From positions 3,485-27,484 of the forward strand of contig CAZXPG010000012.1 of NCBI GenBank assembly GCA_964643145.1: DNA of 24,000 bases, written 5' to 3'. Made by a program: the position numbers and the translations under genes. A model generated the notes under the pieces. The model did no database searches and was not told the DNA's origin. It saw only the letters and a program-made list of their open reading frames with translations. The DNA comes from an uncultured Rickettsiales bacterium (GTDB lineage: Bacteria; Pseudomonadota; Alphaproteobacteria; Rickettsiales; Arcanibacteraceae). This document shows, piece by piece, positions 4,432-15,637 of this stretch. Position 1 is the stretch's first letter. Every line of letters starts with the position of its first letter.

Positions 4432-5301
4432 ATGACCACAGATTCTTCGCAGAAATGCGCGTTTATTGCCTTGCTTGGCACGCCAAACGCCGGAAAATCA
4501 ACCCTGCTTAACCAATTGGTGGGAAGCAAGATTTCGATTGTTAGCCCGAAAGTGCAAACTACCCGTACCGCTATTAACGGTATTTGTATGGCAGGTAACG
4601 CACAGCTTATTTTTATAGATACGCCAGGAATTTTCTTACCCAAGAAACCGCTGGAAAAAGCCATGGTGAAAGCCGCCTGGGAAGGTAGTGCCACGGCCGA
4701 TAGCGCCGCTCTACTGATTGATGCACGCAAAGGCTTGGATGCAGGTACCCAACTGATTGTAGAGGCAATTATTCAGAAACAGCTGAAAGCCATTGCCATT
4801 ATCAACAAAATTGACCTGGTTGATAAAGCAAAGCTGTTTGAACTGGCAAAAGCACTAGATGCCTACGGGATTTTTGCCCGCATATTCATGATCTCTGCCC
4901 TAAAAGGCGATGGGGTAGAGGATGTAAAACATTATCTGGCCGACACCGCCCCCCTCAGCCCCTGGCTCTACCCGGAAGATGACCTCACCACCCTGCCGTT
5001 ACGTTTTCTGGCAGCCGAAATCACCCGCGAGCAGCTTTTCCTGCGGCTTGACCAGGAATTACCCTATGCGTTAACGGTGGAAACTGAGCATTGGGAAACG
5101 CTAGATAATGGCCAGGTCAAAGTTCATCAGGTAATTTATGTGCTGAAAGAATCCCAGAAAATGATTATTATCGGCAAAGGGGGAAGCATGATTAAAGCAG
5201 TGGGCACCAGTGCTAAACAGCAATTACAACGCCTGCTCGGTACAAAAGTACACCTGTTCCTGTTTGTAAAAGTGAACGAAGACTGGATAACCCAATGTTA
5301 G
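4432..5301 (+). CDS. era: GTPase Era
   Basis: G1 GTPNAGKSTL, G3 DTPG and G4 NKID are present, with a C-terminal KH domain (IIIGKGGSMIK). It follows rnc. Confidence 0.95.
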   Translation: MTTDSSQKCAFIALLGTPNAGKSTLLNQLVGSKISIVSPKVQTTRTAINGICMAGNAQLIFIDTPGIFLPKKPLEKAMVKAAWEGSATADSAALLIDARKGLDAGTQLIVEAIIQKQLKAIAIINKIDLVDKAKLFELAKALDAYGIFARIFMISALKGDGVEDVKHYLADTAPLSPWLYPEDDLTTLPLRFLAAEITREQLFLRLDQELPYALTVETEHWETLDNGQVKVHQVIYVLKESQKMIIIGKGGSMIKAVGTSAKQQLQRLLGTKVHLFLFVKVNEDWITQC

Positions 5302-5388
5302 CCCCCCTCTTTCCCTCCTTTTAAAAATTCGCTCTATTTTTATGCTATACTGCGCACGAATGAAGCGTGGCCCAACTCATCATTCGTG

Positions 5389-5440
5389 ATATGCTGCTCA
5401 CATTACAACTTAACCAAGTCTTGAACTGTGAGCAGTATAT
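5389..5440 (-). repeat. Palindromic repeat element, copy A (inverted relative to B and C)
   Basis: Arms atatgctgctcaca (5389-5402) and tgtgagcagtatat (5427-5440) flank a 24-nt spacer. The reverse complement matches copy B along its whole length, with a few substitutions. A separate 9-bp hairpin (5355-5363 with 5380-5388) lies immediately upstream. Confidence 0.85.
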
Positions 5441-5661
5441 ACCCAATAAAAGGAGTTTTTATCATCGTTTCATAAGTGTTTTCCACTTGCCTGATGCGCA
5501 TTATAAATCCTATTGTATATTTATAAAAAAAATATATACTAGGATGTATATATACATGTCTTTCTTAACTGAAATGTTAACCGGAAGCATATTGATGATG
5601 GCTACATATCTCACGTAAGTATTGTCTTTTACTGTAGGTTATGCCGTATTTTTTATGATAT

Positions 5662-7803
5662 ATGTTTAGGCAAGCAATTATGGATACACTATATGATTGG
5701 CTACCTGGAGACGACGATCTACGGACGTTACAGGATATAAAAAATACGTTACCTGGCTATGAAGCTGGTGCTATACACCCACTCGTACGGTTGTTTGAAA
5801 ACCCTGTTTCACCTATTGCCTTCAAAGGTGCTATTAGTTTGGAACGCCATGATTATGTGCATATTGTGCTTAATCGCGGGTTAACACCGCAAGATGAAGC
5901 CTTTGTATTAGGCTTTACGATGGGCACCTCGAAAAATGTTTCCTCGCTTGAGGTGTTCGTCTATGAAGAAATCACCAAATATCTTTATCCTCGTGAATAT
6001 AAATTTGATGACGATCTGCTCAAGGTCTTTGAACTAGGGCTACATTATGGCAAAAAATGTGATGTTGACCATATTTACGAATTCCCTTTTGAAGAGTGGA
6101 AACACTGCACATTAAGAGAAATACGGCAAAAGCTAAAGCTCAATATGCAGGAATTACAAGAAGTCTATTATGAGGAACAACAACAGCTTCCTGATAGTTT
6201 TGTAAGTAAACGCTTGCTCACAACGATGCCGACTTCTACTGAACATGCCGCAAAAAAAGTAGCAAATTCAAATACTAATCTTCATAAAATGGATACTATT
6301 ATGGCTGATGATACCGGGGATATTCGTACCTATACTATGTATCCTCGTATTGAAGGGTTGATCGTTACCTTGGTGATGCTGATTTCAATATGTAGTACGG
6401 CATATTTTATCTATGTACGCGCCTTAGATGCTGTGCAGGCCGAGATTCAGGGGGGGCTGTTACGTTCTGCCTATGCCATTGTAAATACCTCTATTGATCC
6501 CGAGCTCCACAAGACCTTTACCAAAGCTGAAGATGAAAAAACGGAAGCCTACCAAAAAGCAATACGGCCACTTGAACGTCTGCTGGAAACTGACCCAGAA
6601 ATACGTTTTACCTATACAAACGTATTGCGCGATGGCAAAGCCTATTTTGTTATGGATGGTACACCCGATGGCGATTGGGATAAGGATGGAGTACCTGATC
6701 AAGTAGGTGTCATGGAACTCTATAATGATGCGAGTGATGATTTGATGACTGCCCTAAAAGAGCAGAAAGTCGTGGTATCACGGGAACCTTACCAGGATAA
6801 ATGGGGATGGTTTGTGAGTGCACAAGTGCCTTTTTATGATAAAAATCATAATTTTGTTGGTGTCTATGTACTTTCTGTTGACGCAAGAAAATATTTTGAG
6901 CACCTAGAACCTATACAGCGCGCTACCATACGTGCAGTTATCCTTGGTGTGCTGCTTTCCGTTTTAGGAGGGATTACGGTCTGGTTCCTGCGCCGCTTCT
7001 CTGAACAGATTAATAATAGCCGTATGCGGTTGGTGACTGATTTAAAAGATGTAATAGGAAACACTCGCTCGTCCTCAAAGAAAAATATCGATATTGTTTC
7101 CAATATCACCCGTAGCATCAGTACCTCTGTTAACCGCGTAAAAGATCTTGCACAAATACAATTAGCACAATCCTCTGACAGCCGTAATACGCGTGAATTA
7201 GAGGTGTTAATGCGTTCCAGCGATGAGGTGTTACAGGTGCTCAATGATATGGTGGAACTGCTTTCGCTTCAAAATAATCTAGTGGTTTCCACCAAAGACA
7301 AAGTGCGGTTAGAACATATAGTGAATGATGTCATACAGATGATGTCATCACATAATTCATCGCGCAACATCGAGGTTTCACTCAGCGAAAGCACCGTGCT
7401 TTCGCAAGTGGTGATGGCTGATGCCCATTCTATCCAGCAACTTTTCAAGCATATCATAAGCAATGCAGTACGACACACCGATTCCTCAAAAGTGATGCTT
7501 GCAAGTAATGTGCTGGAAGAACTTGAAAATACTATTAATGTACAATTTACCATCGCTATTGATACCACTGCTAACACTAATGGTGAAGCCGCCAGCAAGA
7601 TATTAAAAGCCTTCCTGCACGATACCAGCAGTGGAACCGATAACCAGCTTAATATAACCGATATTGGCCTGGCAATCAGTAAAAACCTTGTTACGTTAAT
7701 GAAAGGAACAATAACCGCTGAAAGCAGTGAAAATAGCGTTAAGATTATCATTACGTTACTCTTAGATAAATCAAGTCCTACCGAAACACTTAATGTCGCT
7801 TGA
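5662..7803 (+). CDS. Membrane sensor protein: N-terminal Coq4-like domain, extracytoplasmic Cache/PDC-like domain, degenerate HisKA/HATPase_c (pseudo histidine kinase)
   Basis: Uninterrupted 713-aa ORF. Near residues 60-85 it has HDYVH-x11-E. Two TM segments (IVTLVMLISICSTAYFIYV and AVILGVLLSVLGGITVWFL) flank a domain of about 170 aa. The C-terminal part aligns by eye to HisKA plus HATPase_c: the N-box SNAVRHT and the G2-like DIGLAISKNLVTLM are present, but the H-box reads SNITRS and the G1 box is lost. An alternative start is ATG 5680. Confidence 0.75.
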   Translation: MFRQAIMDTLYDWLPGDDDLRTLQDIKNTLPGYEAGAIHPLVRLFENPVSPIAFKGAISLERHDYVHIVLNRGLTPQDEAFVLGFTMGTSKNVSSLEVFVYEEITKYLYPREYKFDDDLLKVFELGLHYGKKCDVDHIYEFPFEEWKHCTLREIRQKLKLNMQELQEVYYEEQQQLPDSFVSKRLLTTMPTSTEHAAKKVANSNTNLHKMDTIMADDTGDIRTYTMYPRIEGLIVTLVMLISICSTAYFIYVRALDAVQAEIQGGLLRSAYAIVNTSIDPELHKTFTKAEDEKTEAYQKAIRPLERLLETDPEIRFTYTNVLRDGKAYFVMDGTPDGDWDKDGVPDQVGVMELYNDASDDLMTALKEQKVVVSREPYQDKWGWFVSAQVPFYDKNHNFVGVYVLSVDARKYFEHLEPIQRATIRAVILGVLLSVLGGITVWFLRRFSEQINNSRMRLVTDLKDVIGNTRSSSKKNIDIVSNITRSISTSVNRVKDLAQIQLAQSSDSRNTRELEVLMRSSDEVLQVLNDMVELLSLQNNLVVSTKDKVRLEHIVNDVIQMMSSHNSSRNIEVSLSESTVLSQVVMADAHSIQQLFKHIISNAVRHTDSSKVMLASNVLEELENTINVQFTIAIDTTANTNGEAASKILKAFLHDTSSGTDNQLNITDIGLAISKNLVTLMKGTITAESSENSVKIIITLLLDKSSPTETLNVA

Positions 7804-7901
7804 TCGTATGGTAAATAAGTATAAGCTTAGTTTTGGATAGCGGTGACTTGTCCATACTGAGGTTAAGTATAACTATATCACCTTAAATACTAAAAAATGG
7901 T

Positions 7902-7957
7902 ATATATACTGCTCACAGTTCAAGAATTAGTTAGGTTGCAATGTGAGCAGTATATAT
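7902..7957 (+). repeat. Palindromic repeat element, copy B (best-preserved copy)
   Basis: Perfect 16-bp inverted arms atatatactgctcaca (7902-7917) and tgtgagcagtatatat (7942-7957) flank the 24-nt spacer gttcaagaattagttaggttgcaa. It lies between the sensor gene and the MFS gene. Confidence 0.9.
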
Positions 7958-8016
7958 CCTTCTTGATTGATACAATTTTCACGTGGGTTTAGACGATAAA
8001 AGGGGAAATAAGTATA

Positions 8017-9243
8017 ATGAGTGCTAATCCAGAAAATTTTTCTAAACAGCTAATGGCGGTGGCGGTTATTTTCTTTAGTATGCTTGGAGCTGGCACCTCA
8101 ATGGGGATGAATGCGGTAATATTCTCTATAAGCCTGAAGGATATGGACTGCCCCAGTATGATGATTGGTGCCATTTTAAGCCTAGAAATGCTGGCTATTC
8201 TGCTTACCCATGTTGCCTTATCAAGGTTTCCCGAAACACATCCACGTGTTTTTATGCTAGCATCAATGCTGTTCCGTATTACAGCATTGATAGTGATGCC
8301 TTTTTTCCTGACACCTCAATATTGGGTTATACTGATCATCATCCACGGGTTTGGAATGTTTACCTTCTTGATGCTGTTACAATCATGGCTTAATGCGATT
8401 CCCATTCAGAAATGTCGTGGCTTACTAATGTCAACATGGGGAACGGCACTTTCCATTGGGCTTACGGTTGGGCCTATGATTGTGACGGTAACCGAAGACC
8501 CTGCGCTTCCGGCATTACTCAAACCTATTCCCTATTTGCATGTATATGCTGATCATCTTCCCTTTTTAATCAGTACATTGATTAGTTTTATAGCCGTAAT
8601 ACCCATTCTTCTTGGTTGGTCACTGGCCCCAATGATAAAGCATAATAAATCTATCAAATCTATGACGATGCTTAAAGCCGAGCCGGTAGTAATGGCGGCA
8701 GGGTTGCTGGTGGGATGTTCTATTTTTGGGGTACAATCCTTTATCACACTTTATGGTATGATGAATAATCTTAATCTGCATGATGCGTTATTACTGTTAT
8801 CGGCATTTATGTTTGGGGCTTTCACTTTAGAAGCACCAATTGCAACATTATCCGATATCTTTAAGCGCGAAAAAGTCATGATGATTGCAGCGGGGGTTGG
8901 GCTTATATGCGCAGCTTGCTTACCTATTGTTATCTATAACCAATATCAGTCTTGGCTTTTGCTCTATATTTGGGGAGGGGTTGATTCGGCGATGTTTTCC
9001 ATTTCTCTCGCGACATTGGGGGAACGTTTTAGTAAAGACTATCTGATTGTTGCAAACCGTACATTCTTTACCATGCACGTGATAGGAGGTGCTATTGGTG
9101 CATTTATGATAGGTACAATTATGGAATTGTTCCAGTCAGATGGATTACCTTACAGTATCATGATTGCTACTGTTATCTATATTGTATACAGCCTTGCATA
9201 TTATATTTCATCCATGGGTCGAGAGGAAAAAATAGTTGTATGA
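8017..9243 (+). CDS. MFS-type transporter, substrate unknown
   Basis: 408-aa ORF that is almost entirely hydrophobic, with about 12 predicted TM helices arranged as two halves around a central loop (KHNKSIKSMTMLK). I recognised no specific subfamily motif. Confidence 0.8.
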   Translation: MSANPENFSKQLMAVAVIFFSMLGAGTSMGMNAVIFSISLKDMDCPSMMIGAILSLEMLAILLTHVALSRFPETHPRVFMLASMLFRITALIVMPFFLTPQYWVILIIIHGFGMFTFLMLLQSWLNAIPIQKCRGLLMSTWGTALSIGLTVGPMIVTVTEDPALPALLKPIPYLHVYADHLPFLISTLISFIAVIPILLGWSLAPMIKHNKSIKSMTMLKAEPVVMAAGLLVGCSIFGVQSFITLYGMMNNLNLHDALLLLSAFMFGAFTLEAPIATLSDIFKREKVMMIAAGVGLICAACLPIVIYNQYQSWLLLYIWGGVDSAMFSISLATLGERFSKDYLIVANRTFFTMHVIGGAIGAFMIGTIMELFQSDGLPYSIMIATVIYIVYSLAYYISSMGREEKIVV

Positions 9244-9704
9244 TAAATATACTACTCACAGTTCAAGAATTGGTTAGGTTGCAATGTGAGCAGACTATGC
9301 TTGAGTGCAAGCAATGCTGCATAAAGCAGGCATTGCGCGGCATTTCCGCGTTCCCTGCATTCTGCAGGAACGTAAAAATAAGGACTATACTGAAACCACT
9401 CTTCAAGTGGTTTCAGTACATCACTCCCAAAAAATGGCTGCTTCCATTCTCTGTGATGCTATTACTATCTATAGGAGCGGCCGCTAACGCAGAATACCAC
9501 AAAGAAACTCAAGAAGAGCGCACAATGCGAGTGGGGTTATGCCAGCAGAGGTGTTTTCTATCAGAAAAGCATTGCCTTTATGGTGTCGCTGAAGATAGCC
9601 ATTCTTCCAGCGAAGAGAAACAACAGAAAACGACAGAATGTGCTACAATACATGAAAAATGCCATAAAGGCTGTGATGTCGATTTGGTGCTTGGGGGGCA
9701 ATAA
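9240..9704 (+). CDS. Doubtful ORF; if real, probably only the C-terminal small Cys-rich protein starting at GTG 9453 or ATG 9456
   Basis: The ATG at 9240 overlaps the MFS stop codon as ATGA, but the first ~60 codons are read straight through the palindrome mosaic. Residues 64-84 (KKWLLPFSVMLLLSIGAAANA) look like a signal peptide. The tail has 7 Cys, including CQQRC and CHKGC. No homology was recognised. Confidence 0.3.
   Translation: MINILLTVQELVRLQCEQTMLECKQCCIKQALRGISAFPAFCRNVKIRTILKPLFKWFQYITPKKWLLPFSVMLLLSIGAAANAEYHKETQEERTMRVGLCQQRCFLSEKHCLYGVAEDSHSSSEEKQQKTTECATIHEKCHKGCDVDLVLGGQ
9246..9418 (+). repeat. Mosaic of palindromic units: copy C of the element plus five further hairpins
   Basis: Copy C has arms at 9246-9260 and 9285-9298 (11 of 14 positions pair) and the same 24-nt spacer. 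The further hairpins are 9298-9303/9308-9313, 9311-9320/9326-9336, 9336-9340/9346-9350, 9349-9359/9363-9372, and a 13-bp stem 9388-9400/9406-9418. Parts of this mosaic recur in inverted orientation at 15413-15498. Confidence 0.85.
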
Positions 9705-9710
9705 CCCCCT

Positions 9711-11486
9711 TTATCCCGCGAATTGCAGCTTTGCTAAGCGGGCGTAGAGGCCGTTTTGCTTCAGCAGTTCTTCATGGGTACCCACGGCTTCAATATGGCC
9801 TTCATTTACCACCACAATGCGATCAGCTTTCAGCACCGTGGCCAAACGATGGGCAATCACCAGCGTCGTACGCGTTCCCATCAATGTTTCGAGGGCTTTC
9901 TGTACGAGACGTTCATTTTCTACATCCAGATTGCTAGTGGCTTCATCTAAGAGCAATATAGGCGGGTTTTTAAGCAATGCCCGTGCTATGGCAATACGCT
10001 GCCGTTGCCCACCAGAAAGCCGGACACCACGCTCCCCTAAAAATGTATATATGCTTTCTGGTAATTTTTCCAGGAACTCCCATGCCTCGGCCAATTTAGC
10101 CGCCCGGATAACGTCCTCTTCGCTAGCATCATCTTTCCCATAACGGATATTATCATAGGCACTGCCCGAAAAAATAACCGGCTCCTGTGCCACCATACCA
10201 CACTGACTGCGTAATTCTTTCAGCAACAGTTGGTCAATCGCTATCCCATCCAGGGTAATTAAACCATGCTGCGGATCGTAGAAGCGTAAGAGAAGCTGGA
10301 GCACGGTGCTTTTCCCCGCACCCGATGGGCCAACCAGTGCCACGGTTTCACCCGCCTTTACATGTAGGGAAAAATCATGCAGGGACGGGGTGTGCAGACG
10401 TGCTGGGTAGGAAAATGTCACATGCTGAAAACAAATTTCCCCCTTTATAGGAATAGGCAATGCCACTGGCGTTGGCGGATCGATAATATCGGAAGGGGCA
10501 GAGAGTAGTTCAAATAGCCGTTCTGTAGCCCCTGCGGCGCGCTGTAGATCACCTGCTACTTCACTCAGTGCCCCCAGGCTACTTGCCACCAATATCGCGT
10601 AGAAAATGAAGGAGGAAAGCTCTCCAGCGGTCATTTTTCCCGCCAGCACATCATGCCCACCCACCCATAATACACAAGCAACCGAACCAAACACGGTGGA
10701 AATGACAATCGCCACCAATATCGCCCGCACCCGCACCCGTAACACCGCCGTATCAAGTGCCTCCTGCACCCGATTGCTGAAAATATCACATTCTGCTTTC
10801 TCACGCGTATAAGCTTGCACCGTTTTAATGCCGTTAATCGATTCCTCAATATGGGCACTGATATCAACAATCTTATCCTGTGCTAGCCGCGATAAACGCC
10901 TCACCCGCCTGCCAATCACGATAATGGGAACAAGCACCAGTGGTACAATCACCAACACATAGGCGGTGAGCTTGGCGCTGGTAATGATAAGCAGCACCAT
11001 CCCCCCCACCAACATTAGCAGGTTACGCAGGGCTATAGAGAGCACGGTGGCAATAATACCGTTCAGCAACGTTGTGTCGGTAGTGAGGCGTGAAAGTACA
11101 TCCGAGGTTTTATTTTGCTCAAAAAAACTGGGAGAGACACGAATAATATGGTTATATACATCGCGCCTGAGTGCCGCCACCACCCGTTCGCAGAGAATAT
11201 TAATTAAGGAAGCACGGGTATAGGTAGCGGCTGCGAGCAGAAGAATCACAGCAAGCAATACCAACAGCGATTTATCCAGCAGATGCGGATTATGCGCACT
11301 AAATCCTTTATCAATCAAATATTCAATACCTTTACCTAACCCCAGCACCGAGGAGGAGGTGAATATCAGGGCGACAAACACCCCAACCATCGCTTTTTTA
11401 TGCGGACGCAAATAAGGAATGATCGGTAAAAGACTATGCAACTTTCCCTTGGAGAGAGAGGAAGAATCACTATTTTTTCTAGGCAT
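9711..11486 (-). CDS. ABC exporter, fused permease/ATPase half-transporter (ABCB, MsbA/Atm1-like)
   Basis: An N-terminal six-helix TMD is followed by an NBD with Walker A GPSGAGKST, signature LSGGQRQR, Walker B ILLLDEATS and H-loop AHRL. Confidence 0.93.
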   Translation of the reverse strand: MPRKNSDSSSLSKGKLHSLLPIIPYLRPHKKAMVGVFVALIFTSSSVLGLGKGIEYLIDKGFSAHNPHLLDKSLLVLLAVILLLAAATYTRASLINILCERVVAALRRDVYNHIIRVSPSFFEQNKTSDVLSRLTTDTTLLNGIIATVLSIALRNLLMLVGGMVLLIITSAKLTAYVLVIVPLVLVPIIVIGRRVRRLSRLAQDKIVDISAHIEESINGIKTVQAYTREKAECDIFSNRVQEALDTAVLRVRVRAILVAIVISTVFGSVACVLWVGGHDVLAGKMTAGELSSFIFYAILVASSLGALSEVAGDLQRAAGATERLFELLSAPSDIIDPPTPVALPIPIKGEICFQHVTFSYPARLHTPSLHDFSLHVKAGETVALVGPSGAGKSTVLQLLLRFYDPQHGLITLDGIAIDQLLLKELRSQCGMVAQEPVIFSGSAYDNIRYGKDDASEEDVIRAAKLAEAWEFLEKLPESIYTFLGERGVRLSGGQRQRIAIARALLKNPPILLLDEATSNLDVENERLVQKALETLMGTRTTLVIAHRLATVLKADRIVVVNEGHIEAVGTHEELLKQNGLYARLAKLQFAG

Positions 11487-15412: not shown

Positions 15413-15498
15413 TGTATAGACCTTATTTTTGTGTTCCTGCATTCTACAGCATTGCTTGCACTCAAGCGTTGTCTGACTCATCATTTGTGAGCAGACTA
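15413..15498 (-). repeat. Palindromic mosaic, copy D (inverted, internally deleted copy of 9246-9390)
   Basis: 15413-15440 matches the reverse complement of 9363-9390 at 25 of 28 positions. 15447-15467 is an exact 21-nt reverse complement of 9298-9318. 15470-15498 is a short-loop version of the ctgctcaca/tgtgagcag hairpin. Confidence 0.85.
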
Positions 15499-15637
15499 GG
15501 TGCGTCAAAAAACTTTGCTTGCTGGTTTGACAAATGGGAGAATTTCAAGGATAATCGGCGTAGTTTCCGCATGATTTCATCTACATCTAAAGCCGAACCG
15601 ATGTGTAGGCTTCAATTATTTTTTGGCACAATGTGTT

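Follow-up and report, generated by a model that had tools for sequence, protein, structure and literature searches.

Three palindromes near a sensor and an MFS gene in a Rickettsiales genome probably belong to a dispersed MITE family

The palindrome of about 52 nt that occurs three times around a sensor gene and an MFS gene, here called P1, is in all likelihood the left terminal hairpin of a non-autonomous MITE family that has recently spread through a small alphaproteobacterial genome. This P family would be a new MITE family, a new representative of a known element type. Because the three palindromes are three of about 75 scattered copies, their placement around two genes is ordinary and no sign of a cassette. 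For the window, by which we mean the whole analyzed stretch of 24,000 nucleotides, this removes a tempting reading: the palindromes define neither a mobile cassette nor a regulatory unit common to the sensor and the MFS gene. Beyond the window, the family offers a clean case of an orphan MITE family that is modular and targets TA, in an alphaproteobacterial lineage that is small and poorly known.

The three palindromes and related elements in the window

The P1 copies are located where an earlier note on this DNA had placed them, at 5389-5440 (copy A, reverse orientation), 7902-7957 (copy B) and 9246-9298 (copy C), and their positions relative to the genes had also been described correctly. 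Copy A follows era (stop codon at 5301), copy B is located between the gene for a 713-aa HATPase_c sensor protein and the MFS gene, and copy C lies at the 3' end of the MFS gene, starting 5 nt downstream of its stop codon. A search of the window with a 42-nt P1 consensus and up to three mismatches returned only these three sites; no match was obtained in 100 dinucleotide shuffles, and no copy is expected by chance. The repeat search of the window independently grouped the same three copies (family D1, pairs I1/I2). The 24-nt spacer quoted previously is present in copies B and C, and the core of copy A deviates from the P1 consensus by three changes. Copy B indeed has perfect arms of 16 nt and folds with -26.7 kcal/mol (z = -6.3). 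In copy C the left arm carries a G to A exchange, and the P1 hairpin is no better folded than shuffled sequences (z = +0.75).

The earlier note had overlooked that another, related hairpin directly adjoins copy A in a fusion, that copy C runs on without a break as part of a modular element, and that the P1 family is distributed genome-wide. The complete elements are listed in Table 1. Element A has the termini TACTG...CAGTA with TA flanks at 5346-47 and 5438-39 and is positioned 43 nt 3' of the era stop codon and 220 nt 5' of the sensor gene; relatives of its P2-type hairpin occur elsewhere in the genome on contigs C6, C23 and C24. Element B, which follows the sensor stop at 7803 and precedes the MFS start at 8017, has TA on each side, and the wider palindrome spans 7901-7957. 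Element C, whose core class is also found on contigs C32 and C43, is flanked by TA at 9248-49 and by a degenerate CA at 9419-20, and folds as a whole with z = -4.5. Element D, in the orientation opposite to element C, comprises the M2/M3 modules and the beginning of M5 besides a P2-type left arm, is missing the M5 hairpin, and begins 10 nt 3' of the stop codon of a Kinase-PPPase (PF03618) gene. The only terminator-like site that the scan detected among the window elements is the M5 hairpin of element C read on the minus strand, which faces the convergent ABC transporter gene (stop at 9711).

Table 1. P-family elements and their modules in the window.
Feature	Position	Strand	Description
Element A, 90 nt	5348..5437	-	P2-type hairpin fused to P1 copy A; sequence read, P1 match with 3 mismatches
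Element A, P2-type hairpin	5348-5393		arms CACGAATGA/TCATTCGTG
Element A, P1 core	5394-5435		reverse orientation
Element B, 46 nt, solo P1 hairpin	7907..7952	+	TACTGCTCACAG-loop-TGTGAGCAGTA; 0 mismatches to consensus; repeat pair I11
Element C, 169 nt, full modular element	9250..9418	+	165-nt core size class
Element C, P1	9250-9298
Element C, GCTTGAGTGCAAGC hairpin	9299-9312
Element C, AATGCTGCATAAAGCAGG	9313-9330
Element C, optional module	9331-9368
Element C, M5 right terminal hairpin and A-rich leader	9369-9418
Element D, degenerate, internally deleted relative of element C	15414..15499	-	repeat pairs I3, I5; M2M3 match
M5 hairpin of element C, minus-strand reading	9386..9420	-	16-bp stem then GTCCTTATTT; terminator scan

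Copy number, architecture and insertion of the P family

The earlier note had proposed a genome-wide count and had named absence of the element from the rest of the genome as a reason to abandon its idea. With about 75 P1 loci on 50 contigs of the 1.83-Mb draft assembly (96.6% complete; nhmmer), the family is clearly far from local. A P1 30-mer with up to three mismatches matched 65 times in the genome, compared with 0 matches of the reversed-pattern control, and 56 of the 65 cores are at most one mismatch away from the consensus. P1 usually forms the left terminal hairpin of a modular element of 127-190 nt. The basic unit of 131 nt consists of TACTG, the P1 hairpin, two small hairpins, an A-rich spacer, the M5 hairpin and CAGTA, and the order of the modules is fixed (P1-M2-M3-(M4)-M5). 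An optional internal module is present in the longer forms, which measure about 169 and 190-194 nt, short derivatives consist of a single terminal hairpin with a TACTG...CAGTA terminus on both sides, and the size of P-family elements ranges overall from 46 to 194 nt. The cores of the 27 P1...M5 composites come in discrete sizes of about 127, 165 and 186-190 nt, and the composites are all bounded by TATA/CTG...CAG/TATA; every element has the form TA/TACTG...CAGTA/TA. The composite ends have only about 5-8 nt in common (TATACTG), and each end is itself a hairpin with a different stem. Common ends of 5-8 nt are short for a DDE transposase, a point that counts against a MITE.

Open frames across the elements are artefacts of the ORF caller, and the elements have no coding capacity for a transposase. 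All 10 copies "inside ORFs" were located in upstream over-extensions of real genes, whose true N-termini were confirmed by Pfam, or in spurious ORFs of about 100 aa, and inspection of these ten ORF-overlapping cases revealed no P1 copy within a bona fide gene. Relative to the genes, the orientation of P1 is unbiased (10 same, 11 opposite), and both tandem and divergent spacers are occupied. The covariation score of the P1 arms is 0.036 versus 0.033 in shuffles, with 123 of 500 shuffles reaching 0.036; mutations in single arms are uncompensated, which fits a decaying selfish element and not a selected hairpin. Even at E <= 1 the P1 family has no match in Rfam.

A composite at C19:14224-14350 splits a copy of another repeat, of which seven uninterrupted paralogues exist. 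The empty site reads CTGTTATAGTAGCGG and the filled site CTGTTATA-TA(CTG..127 nt..CAG)TA-TAGTAGCGG. This filled/empty pair, the single one for the P family, represents a clean gain of 133 nt at TATA; it is compatible with a duplication of TA (or TATA) and equally with insertion 3' of TATA without duplication. At four readable sites in one other strain, no insertion polymorphism was observed, which counts against a MITE. Family Q, a companion repeat with about 270 loci (271), displays 6-8-bp duplications when compared with empty paralogues, and one of its copies is inserted inside a P1. These repeat families terminate 135 of the 206 contig ends. A few nested families of hairpin repeats (P, Q, R and others) are behind two thirds of the contig breaks; they also give rise to long spurious extensions of ORFs and, at several housekeeping genes, have taken the place of the 5' leader. 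They should be masked or modelled when genomes of this lineage are assembled and annotated.

The copies had been described as a possible REP/MITE-like mobile palindrome. The MITE half of this proposal is supported by the roughly 75 loci, the invariant termini and the filled/empty pair, whereas the REP/RAYT half is not: the proposed search for a RAYT-type transposase was carried out, and Y1_Tnp (PF01797) had 0 matches in the 96.6%-complete genome while the control genomes were positive. In a REP/REPIN system, where REPs usually flank the RAYT gene, P1 would be an inverted REP doublet that a RAYT or an IS200/IS605-type Y1 (HUH) transposase mobilizes in single-stranded form and that enters 3' of TATA without target duplication. 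The filled/empty pair fits such an entry of TACTG...CAGTATA equally well, the element ends are both hairpins with differing stems on a common foot (TATACTG...CAGTATA), and the terminal sequence in common is short. However, TnpB is without a match just as Y1_Tnp is, a 5' GTAG-type motif is missing at the foot (the consensus is TATACTGCTCACAG...), and the elements, which measure 127-190 nt and keep their modules in a fixed order, exceed classical REPs in length, so that we consider a REP/REPIN origin very unlikely.

Models for DDE_3, TnpB, IS256, IS1595 and IS110 gave no match in the 96.6%-complete draft; the mariner and Y2 models did not match either, but their controls also matched in no genome. 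Transposase remnants are restricted to degraded scraps of DDE_Tnp_1, rve and ISL3. One single-copy IS5/IS427-like element looks intact, and its 21-bp inverted repeat differs from the P-family ends. MITEs measure about 50-500 bp, and the P family has the small size without transposase coding, the many dispersed copies with invariant ends and the terminal inverted repeats (with a short shared part) that characterize MITEs; the related autonomous IS with matching ends that is also expected of a MITE was not found in the genome, a 96.6%-complete draft in which its absence is unproven. The enzyme that moves the family may not be encoded, or may not be assembled, in this genome, and an enzyme recognizing hairpins with only a TATACTG foot in common would perhaps be of an undescribed kind. 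The elements insert at intergenic TATA/TA, either with duplication of TA or by entry 3' of TATA without duplication. As MITEs, copies A (a P2+P1 fusion), B (a solo P1) and C (a full element) would represent three independent insertions into neighbouring AT-rich spacers.

Relation of the palindromes to the neighbouring genes

The sensor and the MFS gene are compositionally odd and are not neighbours of era in relatives; the label "accessory" that the earlier note gave to these genes of 41% GC is therefore reasonable. That the copies delimit each accessory gene like cassette boundaries is another matter. As a cassette or composite transposon, the inverted copies A and C, which enclose B, would have introduced the sensor-MFS block or could still move it, or the copies would be recombination sites that assembled it. 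Copies A and C are oppositely oriented and are located exactly at the edges of a block of 40-41% GC, which lies below the 5th percentile of this genome's genes. Neither gene stands beside era in 80 alphaproteobacterial loci or in three same-family genomes, where synteny ends directly after era, but these same-family relatives, at 56-61% Era identity, are too distant for the synteny break to weigh much. The nearby core genes hemH and hemE are just as low in GC, P1 pairs elsewhere enclose genes of normal GC such as ubiA (GC 0.51), and P1 loci are not associated with GC steps (p = 0.13). A P1 triple within 4 kb occurs in 27% of random intergenic placements, and the number of P1 pairs within 5 kb, 13 versus 10.2, gives no sign of clustering (p = 0.21). 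For the block taken as a whole, a TA flank carries no information as a duplication. The suggested use as a recombination site for assembling an island is not supported either: the best match of the integron integrase model TIGR02249 is XerC/D-like and reaches 76 bits compared with a cut-off of 265, the copies do not share one orientation, and attC-type core sites are missing from their arms. We regard a cassette as highly improbable; as independent MITE insertions, the three copies would neither delimit nor move the two genes.

The least probable of the explanations considered here is that P1 is kept as a selected regulatory stem-loop for terminating, stabilizing or processing the era, sensor and MFS transcripts. 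The hairpin of copy B is highly stable, copy C adjoins the MFS stop codon, and the P1 end is enriched at start codons genome-wide. In addition, promoters as well as sites for IHF and RNase III can be present on known MITEs (PMC10969869). Against selection stand the uncompensated arm mutations, the already broken hairpin of copy C, the lack of an orientation bias, the presence of P1 in divergent promoter spacers, and the absence of any functional tie among the three window copies. P1 has no U-tract and was neither terminator-like nor promoter-like in the scan; as the earlier note had stated, the copies are not generic terminators. The proposal that the copies co-regulate the cassette, as a binding site or an RNA stem-loop, is not supported as something particular to these genes: the same element accompanies unrelated housekeeping genes, occurs in either orientation and occupies divergent spacers as well as tandem ones. 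The stable hairpins 3' of era, between the sensor and the MFS gene and at the 3' end of the latter are probably by-products of MITE insertion, as is the weak terminator-like M5 hairpin directed towards the convergent ABC gene.

P1 ends lie 0-9 nt from a true ATG in 11 of 64 cases, including def, hisA, kdsA and glyQ; no M5 end does. At several sites the element makes up nearly the whole spacer between two tightly packed genes. The enrichment of the P1 end at start codons counts against a MITE and suggests that some copies are not neutral. It is conceivable, if rather doubtful, that the P1 end serves as a portable leader that aids translation initiation and that the whole element forms a ready-to-use spacer between cistrons, whose upstream side carries a weak terminator-like M5 hairpin and whose downstream side an initiation-competent P1 end. 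This would account for the P1 ends at ATG, the lack of M5 ends there and the filling of tight spacers. The orientation-specific association is a testable case of a mobile element supplying translation signals.

Comparison with known systems

The P1 family was not found in 40 relatives or in plasmid and phage sequences, and the exact 24-mer was not found in species-representative, metagenome and viral collections. Similar to integron attC sites, P1 copies are imperfect palindromes of about 55-60 nt beside stop codons of accessory-looking genes. attC sites vary in sequence and form co-oriented arrays beside intI with RYYYAAC/GTTRRRY core sites in their arms, whereas P1 copies are near-identical and scattered singly over 50 contigs in both orientations, GTTAGGT is present only in the loop, and no integron integrase scores above the cut-off in the genome. 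The Rickettsia palindromic elements (RPE) are palindromic repeats of similar size that also proliferated in a small alphaproteobacterial genome; they are known for in-frame insertion within protein-coding genes, in contrast to the P family, which has no copy inside a bona fide gene. With REP/BIME/REPIN sequences the family shares extragenic palindromes and mosaics of hairpin units, and P1 resembles a two-arm REPIN with a conserved loop; it differs in that no RAYT/Y1 gene was found, by the lack of GTAG and of a bias for gene 3' ends, and by the insertion of a defined 131-nt unit.

Correia elements (CREE) of Neisseria insert at TA with duplication of TA, and the filled/empty P-family pair is compatible with the same. 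Both are small and non-coding, with about 100 or more copies and inverted ends, and both are mostly intergenic and often immediately 5' of genes, as documented for the many-copy Correia elements (PMC10969869). In contrast, there is no sequence similarity (the P1 24-mer occurs in no other species representative), the common terminal repeat of the P family has only about 5-8 nt with a hairpin at each end, and its body consists of small hairpin modules in a set order, in which no sigma-70-like promoter was detected. Pneumococcal BOX, RUP and SPRITE repeats have a modular boxA-B-C build, comparable to P1-M2-M3-(M4)-M5, and, as in the present genome, several families are co-resident, cluster and insert one into another (PMC10969869, PMC3049150). 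Host phylum and sequences are unrelated, and in the present genome the duplications are of 6-8 bp for Q and, in a reading compatible with its filled/empty pair, of TA for the P family.

P1 as part of a dispersed modular element

Inspection of the window sequence confirmed the three palindromes which the earlier note had described around the genes downstream of era. These copies (A, B and C) of the ~52-nt palindrome P1 are the sole matches in the window to the 42-nt P1 consensus at up to three mismatches, and no match was found in 100 dinucleotide shuffles of the window. In copy B, the 16-nt arms match perfectly and the predicted fold reaches -26.7 kcal/mol (z = -6.3). The left arm of copy C carries a G>A exchange and its fold is no better than that of shuffled sequence. 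P2, a related hairpin type, has the same foot as P1 and a longer stem (CTGCTCACGAATGA); further P2 hairpins were located on contigs C6, C23 and C24 of the source assembly.

The source assembly consists of 1.83 Mb on 103 contigs with 48% GC and a completeness of 96.6%. The earlier note had suggested a genome-wide count of the palindrome, and iterated nhmmer searches of the whole assembly revealed that P1 is dispersed, with 75 loci on 50 contigs. Using a P1 30-mer with up to three mismatches, 65 matches were obtained in the genome compared with none for a reversed-pattern control, and 56 of the 65 cores deviate from the consensus by at most one mismatch. Since 19 contig ends fall inside P1, and P1 together with other repeat families accounts for 135 of the 206 contig ends, these counts probably underestimate the real copy numbers.

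Alignment of the copies with their flanks demonstrated that additional modules are usually located 3' of P1 in a fixed order: GCTTGAGTGCAAGC directly after P1, AATGCTGCATAAAGCAGG as the next module, an optional module of 38 or about 62 nt, and M5, the right terminal module, which comprises AACGCAAAAATAAGG followed by a 16-bp hairpin (CTATACTGAAACCACT-CTTC-AAGTGGTTTCAGTATAG). All 27 intact composites extending from P1 to M5, whose cores group at about 127, 165 and 186-190 nt, are bounded by TATA/CTG...CAG/TATA. The foot TATACTG...CAGTATA is common to P1, P2 and M5, the stems of which differ, so that each hairpin alone is framed by element termini. Such paired termini would explain the origin of solo copies.

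Coordinates of the P1 copies, neighboring genes and related features (plain positions refer to the window, others to contigs of the source assembly)
Feature	Position	Strand	Remark
Copy A, core	5394-5435	minus	3 mismatches to consensus
Copy B, core	7909-7950		0 mismatches to consensus
Copy C, core	9252-9293		1 mismatch to consensus
Copy A, element	5348-5437		P1 fused to P2 hairpin
Copy B, element	7907-7952		solo P1
Copy C, element	9250-9418		complete 169-nt element
Element D	15414-15499		fourth element, degenerate
lepB, rnc, era	era stop at 5301		adjoining the copies
713-aa HATPase_c protein gene (sensor)	5662-7803		
MFS transporter gene	8017-9243		
ABC exporter gene	3' of MFS gene		convergent
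154-codon ORF	9240-9704		overlaps MFS stop codon
6S RNA (RF00013)	16270-16424	plus	60.5 bits
Repeat family Q, examples	23669-23704; C3:51265-51526		
93-nt nested palindrome	48-140; C45:2323-2420; C30:9947-10038		small repeat family
Composite in interrupted repeat	C19:14224-14350		127 nt
IS5/IS427-like element	C13:12956-13781		826 bp
P1 ends at gene starts, examples	C11:33197-33251; C72:6576-6630; C7:1801-1854; C9:14919-14972		genes include kdsA, glyQ, def, hisA

Insertion of P elements and search for a mobilising transposase

A search for empty sites showed that the composite on contig C19 splits a copy of another repeat, of which seven uninterrupted paralogues exist. The empty site in the paralogues reads ...GTCAACTGTTATAGTAGCGGAGTAGT... 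and the filled site ...GTCAACTGTTATA-TA[CTG...CAG]TA-TAGTAGCGGAGTAGT..., with a net gain of 133 nt. Insertion of an element TACTG...CAGTA with duplication of TA would be the simplest symmetric reading of this pair, which fits equally well with a duplication of TATA or with insertion 3' of TATA without duplication. The target belongs to a repeat family (...CCCCTCAAGGGGGAGGGAGTGCGCCTGTCAACTGTTATAGTAGCGGAGTAGTA...) represented at C4:14965-15019 and by six further paralogues (C16, C100, two on C8, C97 and C73). When the flanks of M5, P1 and Q were scanned again, four filled/empty pairs emerged for the repeat family Q and none further for the P family.

Q, with 271 loci more abundant than the P family, is palindromic and 45 nt long (TAACCTCAGTTTTGGATAAGC-N3-GCTTATCCAAAACTGAGGTTA). 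In addition, it occurs in a long form of 245 nt, the two termini of which correspond to the halves of the short form, and 94 of the 206 contig ends lie in Q. Comparison with empty paralogues identified AT-rich target duplications of 6-8 bp, and Q was found inserted within a P1 copy and within the optional module of P elements; past activity of small mobile elements in this genome is therefore clear. The 93-nt nested palindrome constitutes another family of about 5-10 loci, and its inner arms (CCGCTCACA/TGTGAGCGA) have a GCTCACA/TGTGAGC core in common with P1 and P2.

The modular elements throughout the genome and the C19 pair bear out the proposal of the earlier note that P1 is a MITE-like mobile palindrome. 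We regard the P elements as a new family within a familiar type of element; by sequence they belong to none of the families described so far. They work like the TA-targeting MITEs of the Correia type, and are built in a modular manner like the pneumococcal BOX and enterobacterial BIME mosaics (PMC10969869, PMC3184786, PMC3049150).

An insertion sequence mobilising the P elements would end in TACTGCTCACAG... or TACTGAAACCAC..., and twelve family searches together with inspection of the IS remnants identified no transposase with matching ends in this genome. Its IS content consists of degraded fragments of IS5, IS3 and ISL3 plus one single-copy IS5/IS427-like element, which encodes DUF4096 and DDE_Tnp_1 in two frames and possesses perfect 21-bp inverted repeats with TA flanks. 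This element splits an ORF resembling the capsid gene of a phage or GTA. Its repeat agrees with the P1 arm and loop at 11 of 19 positions; we rejected the element as mobiliser because this match is shifted by 5 nt relative to the end and the element is present only once. The ISL3 and rve remnants merely adjoin Q copies and were likewise dismissed as partners. P1 is not a RAYT-dependent REP, as neither a Y1 transposase nor TnpB was found in the 96.6%-complete assembly. An integron attC site was also discarded, the copies being near-identical, scattered and present in both orientations; the best match to the integron integrase model in the genome reached 76 bits versus a cut-off of 265.

The host represents an isolated alphaproteobacterial lineage: the best Era identity is 61% inside the family, and for MAGs carrying the label Rickettsiales or Alphaproteobacteria the best values are 50-58%. 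Neither the 30-mer nor BLAST of the full composite detected the P family in 40 relatives, the two BLAST matches of 24-28 nt being at chance level. An exact 24-mer was absent from species-representative, metagenome and viral collections, and the family was not found in plasmids and phages. One other strain, identified in a Logan assembly by exact-protein look-up, is 99.86% identical over 1.4 kb, with era-A-sensor and B-MFS-C arranged as in the source genome. Around an ADH gene, the contigs of this strain end at the same Q copies, and no empty P site was obtained from it. Exact-protein look-ups for def and hisA returned no other strain, and a 320-aa gene was present only in the source genome's own sample.

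The sensor and MFS genes between the copies

The sensor and MFS genes do stand out in this genome. Their GC is 41.3% and 40.9%, respectively, with the 5th percentile of gene GC at 42.7%, and neither gene adjoins era in any of 80 alphaproteobacterial loci or three same-family genomes; in these three, the gpmI-lepB-rnc-era synteny stops directly after era. A full-length sensor orthologue was not found among 12 relatives. The sensor is a mosaic in which only the C-terminus is HATPase_c: residues 10-185 show 51-52% identity to stand-alone proteins of ~200 aa from other families of the order, and for residues 219-462 a paralogue with 42% identity is located on contig C49.

The geometry of P1 around these genes is not special, and the view of the earlier note that the copies mark cassette boundaries was not supported. 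P1 loci do not generally coincide with GC steps, the median absolute GC difference being 0.029 versus 0.025 for all spacers (p = 0.13), and 13 P1 pairs lie within 5 kb compared with 10.2 ± 2.8 expected (p = 0.21), which indicates no clustering beyond chance. Random placement into intergenic gaps produced at least one P1 triple within 4 kb in 27% of the trials. Elsewhere, P1 pairs bracket genes of normal composition, and the nearby core genes hemH and hemE are equally low in GC. Nothing positively supports a MITE-flanked composite transposon carrying the block, which is still conceivable since a TA flank carries no information.

Elements C and D are oppositely oriented around a 6-kb block of the ABC exporter, hemJ-hemH-hemE and Kinase-PPPase (PF03618) genes, and could act as inversion substrates. 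The GC skew switches sign around 11-13 kb of the window.

Regulatory signals and start codons at P1

The suggestion of the earlier note that P1 co-regulates the adjoining genes found no support. Mutations in the arms lack compensating changes and the covariation score is the same as in shuffles, which speaks against a selected RNA or DNA structure; Rfam gave no match even at E <= 1. No intrinsic terminator was called in P1 by consensus and no sigma-70-like promoter was called, nor was a suitably spaced hexamer pair visible by eye. The sole terminator-like call concerns M5 on the minus strand, where the hairpin is followed by GTCCTTATTT.

P1 is, by chance, open in one frame per orientation, so that ORF callers stretch real genes upstream. 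Every case of P1 inside an ORF was due to such over-extension or to a spurious short ORF, and an RPE-like intragenic element was therefore rejected. The initial ~180 nt of the 154-codon ORF are mobile element; a distinct small protein, rich in Cys and beginning like a signal peptide, may genuinely be encoded around 9456-9704.

In 11 of 64 copies, a distance of 0-9 nt separates the outer P1 end from the ATG of a long ORF, compared with 6.4% of control intergenic TATAT sites (Fisher p = 0.003). The corresponding number for the M5 end is 0 of 27 (p = 0.01 within composites). Pfam alignments identified the ATGs as true N-termini for peptide deformylase, HisA, KdsA, GlyQ, an inositol-monophosphatase-family protein and a dicarboxylate symporter. 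Altogether the P1 end directly adjoins or overlaps (CAGTATATG) the true starts of kdsA, glyQ, def, hisA and seven other genes, and several elements take up nearly the entire intergenic spacer (e.g. stop-7 nt-element-9 nt-ATG). At these starts the native leader and ribosome-binding site have thus been displaced by the element. Since the terminal bases are the same at both element ends, the asymmetry between P1 and M5 points to orientation-dependent survival: translation initiation appears to be possible at the P1 end and not at the M5 end.
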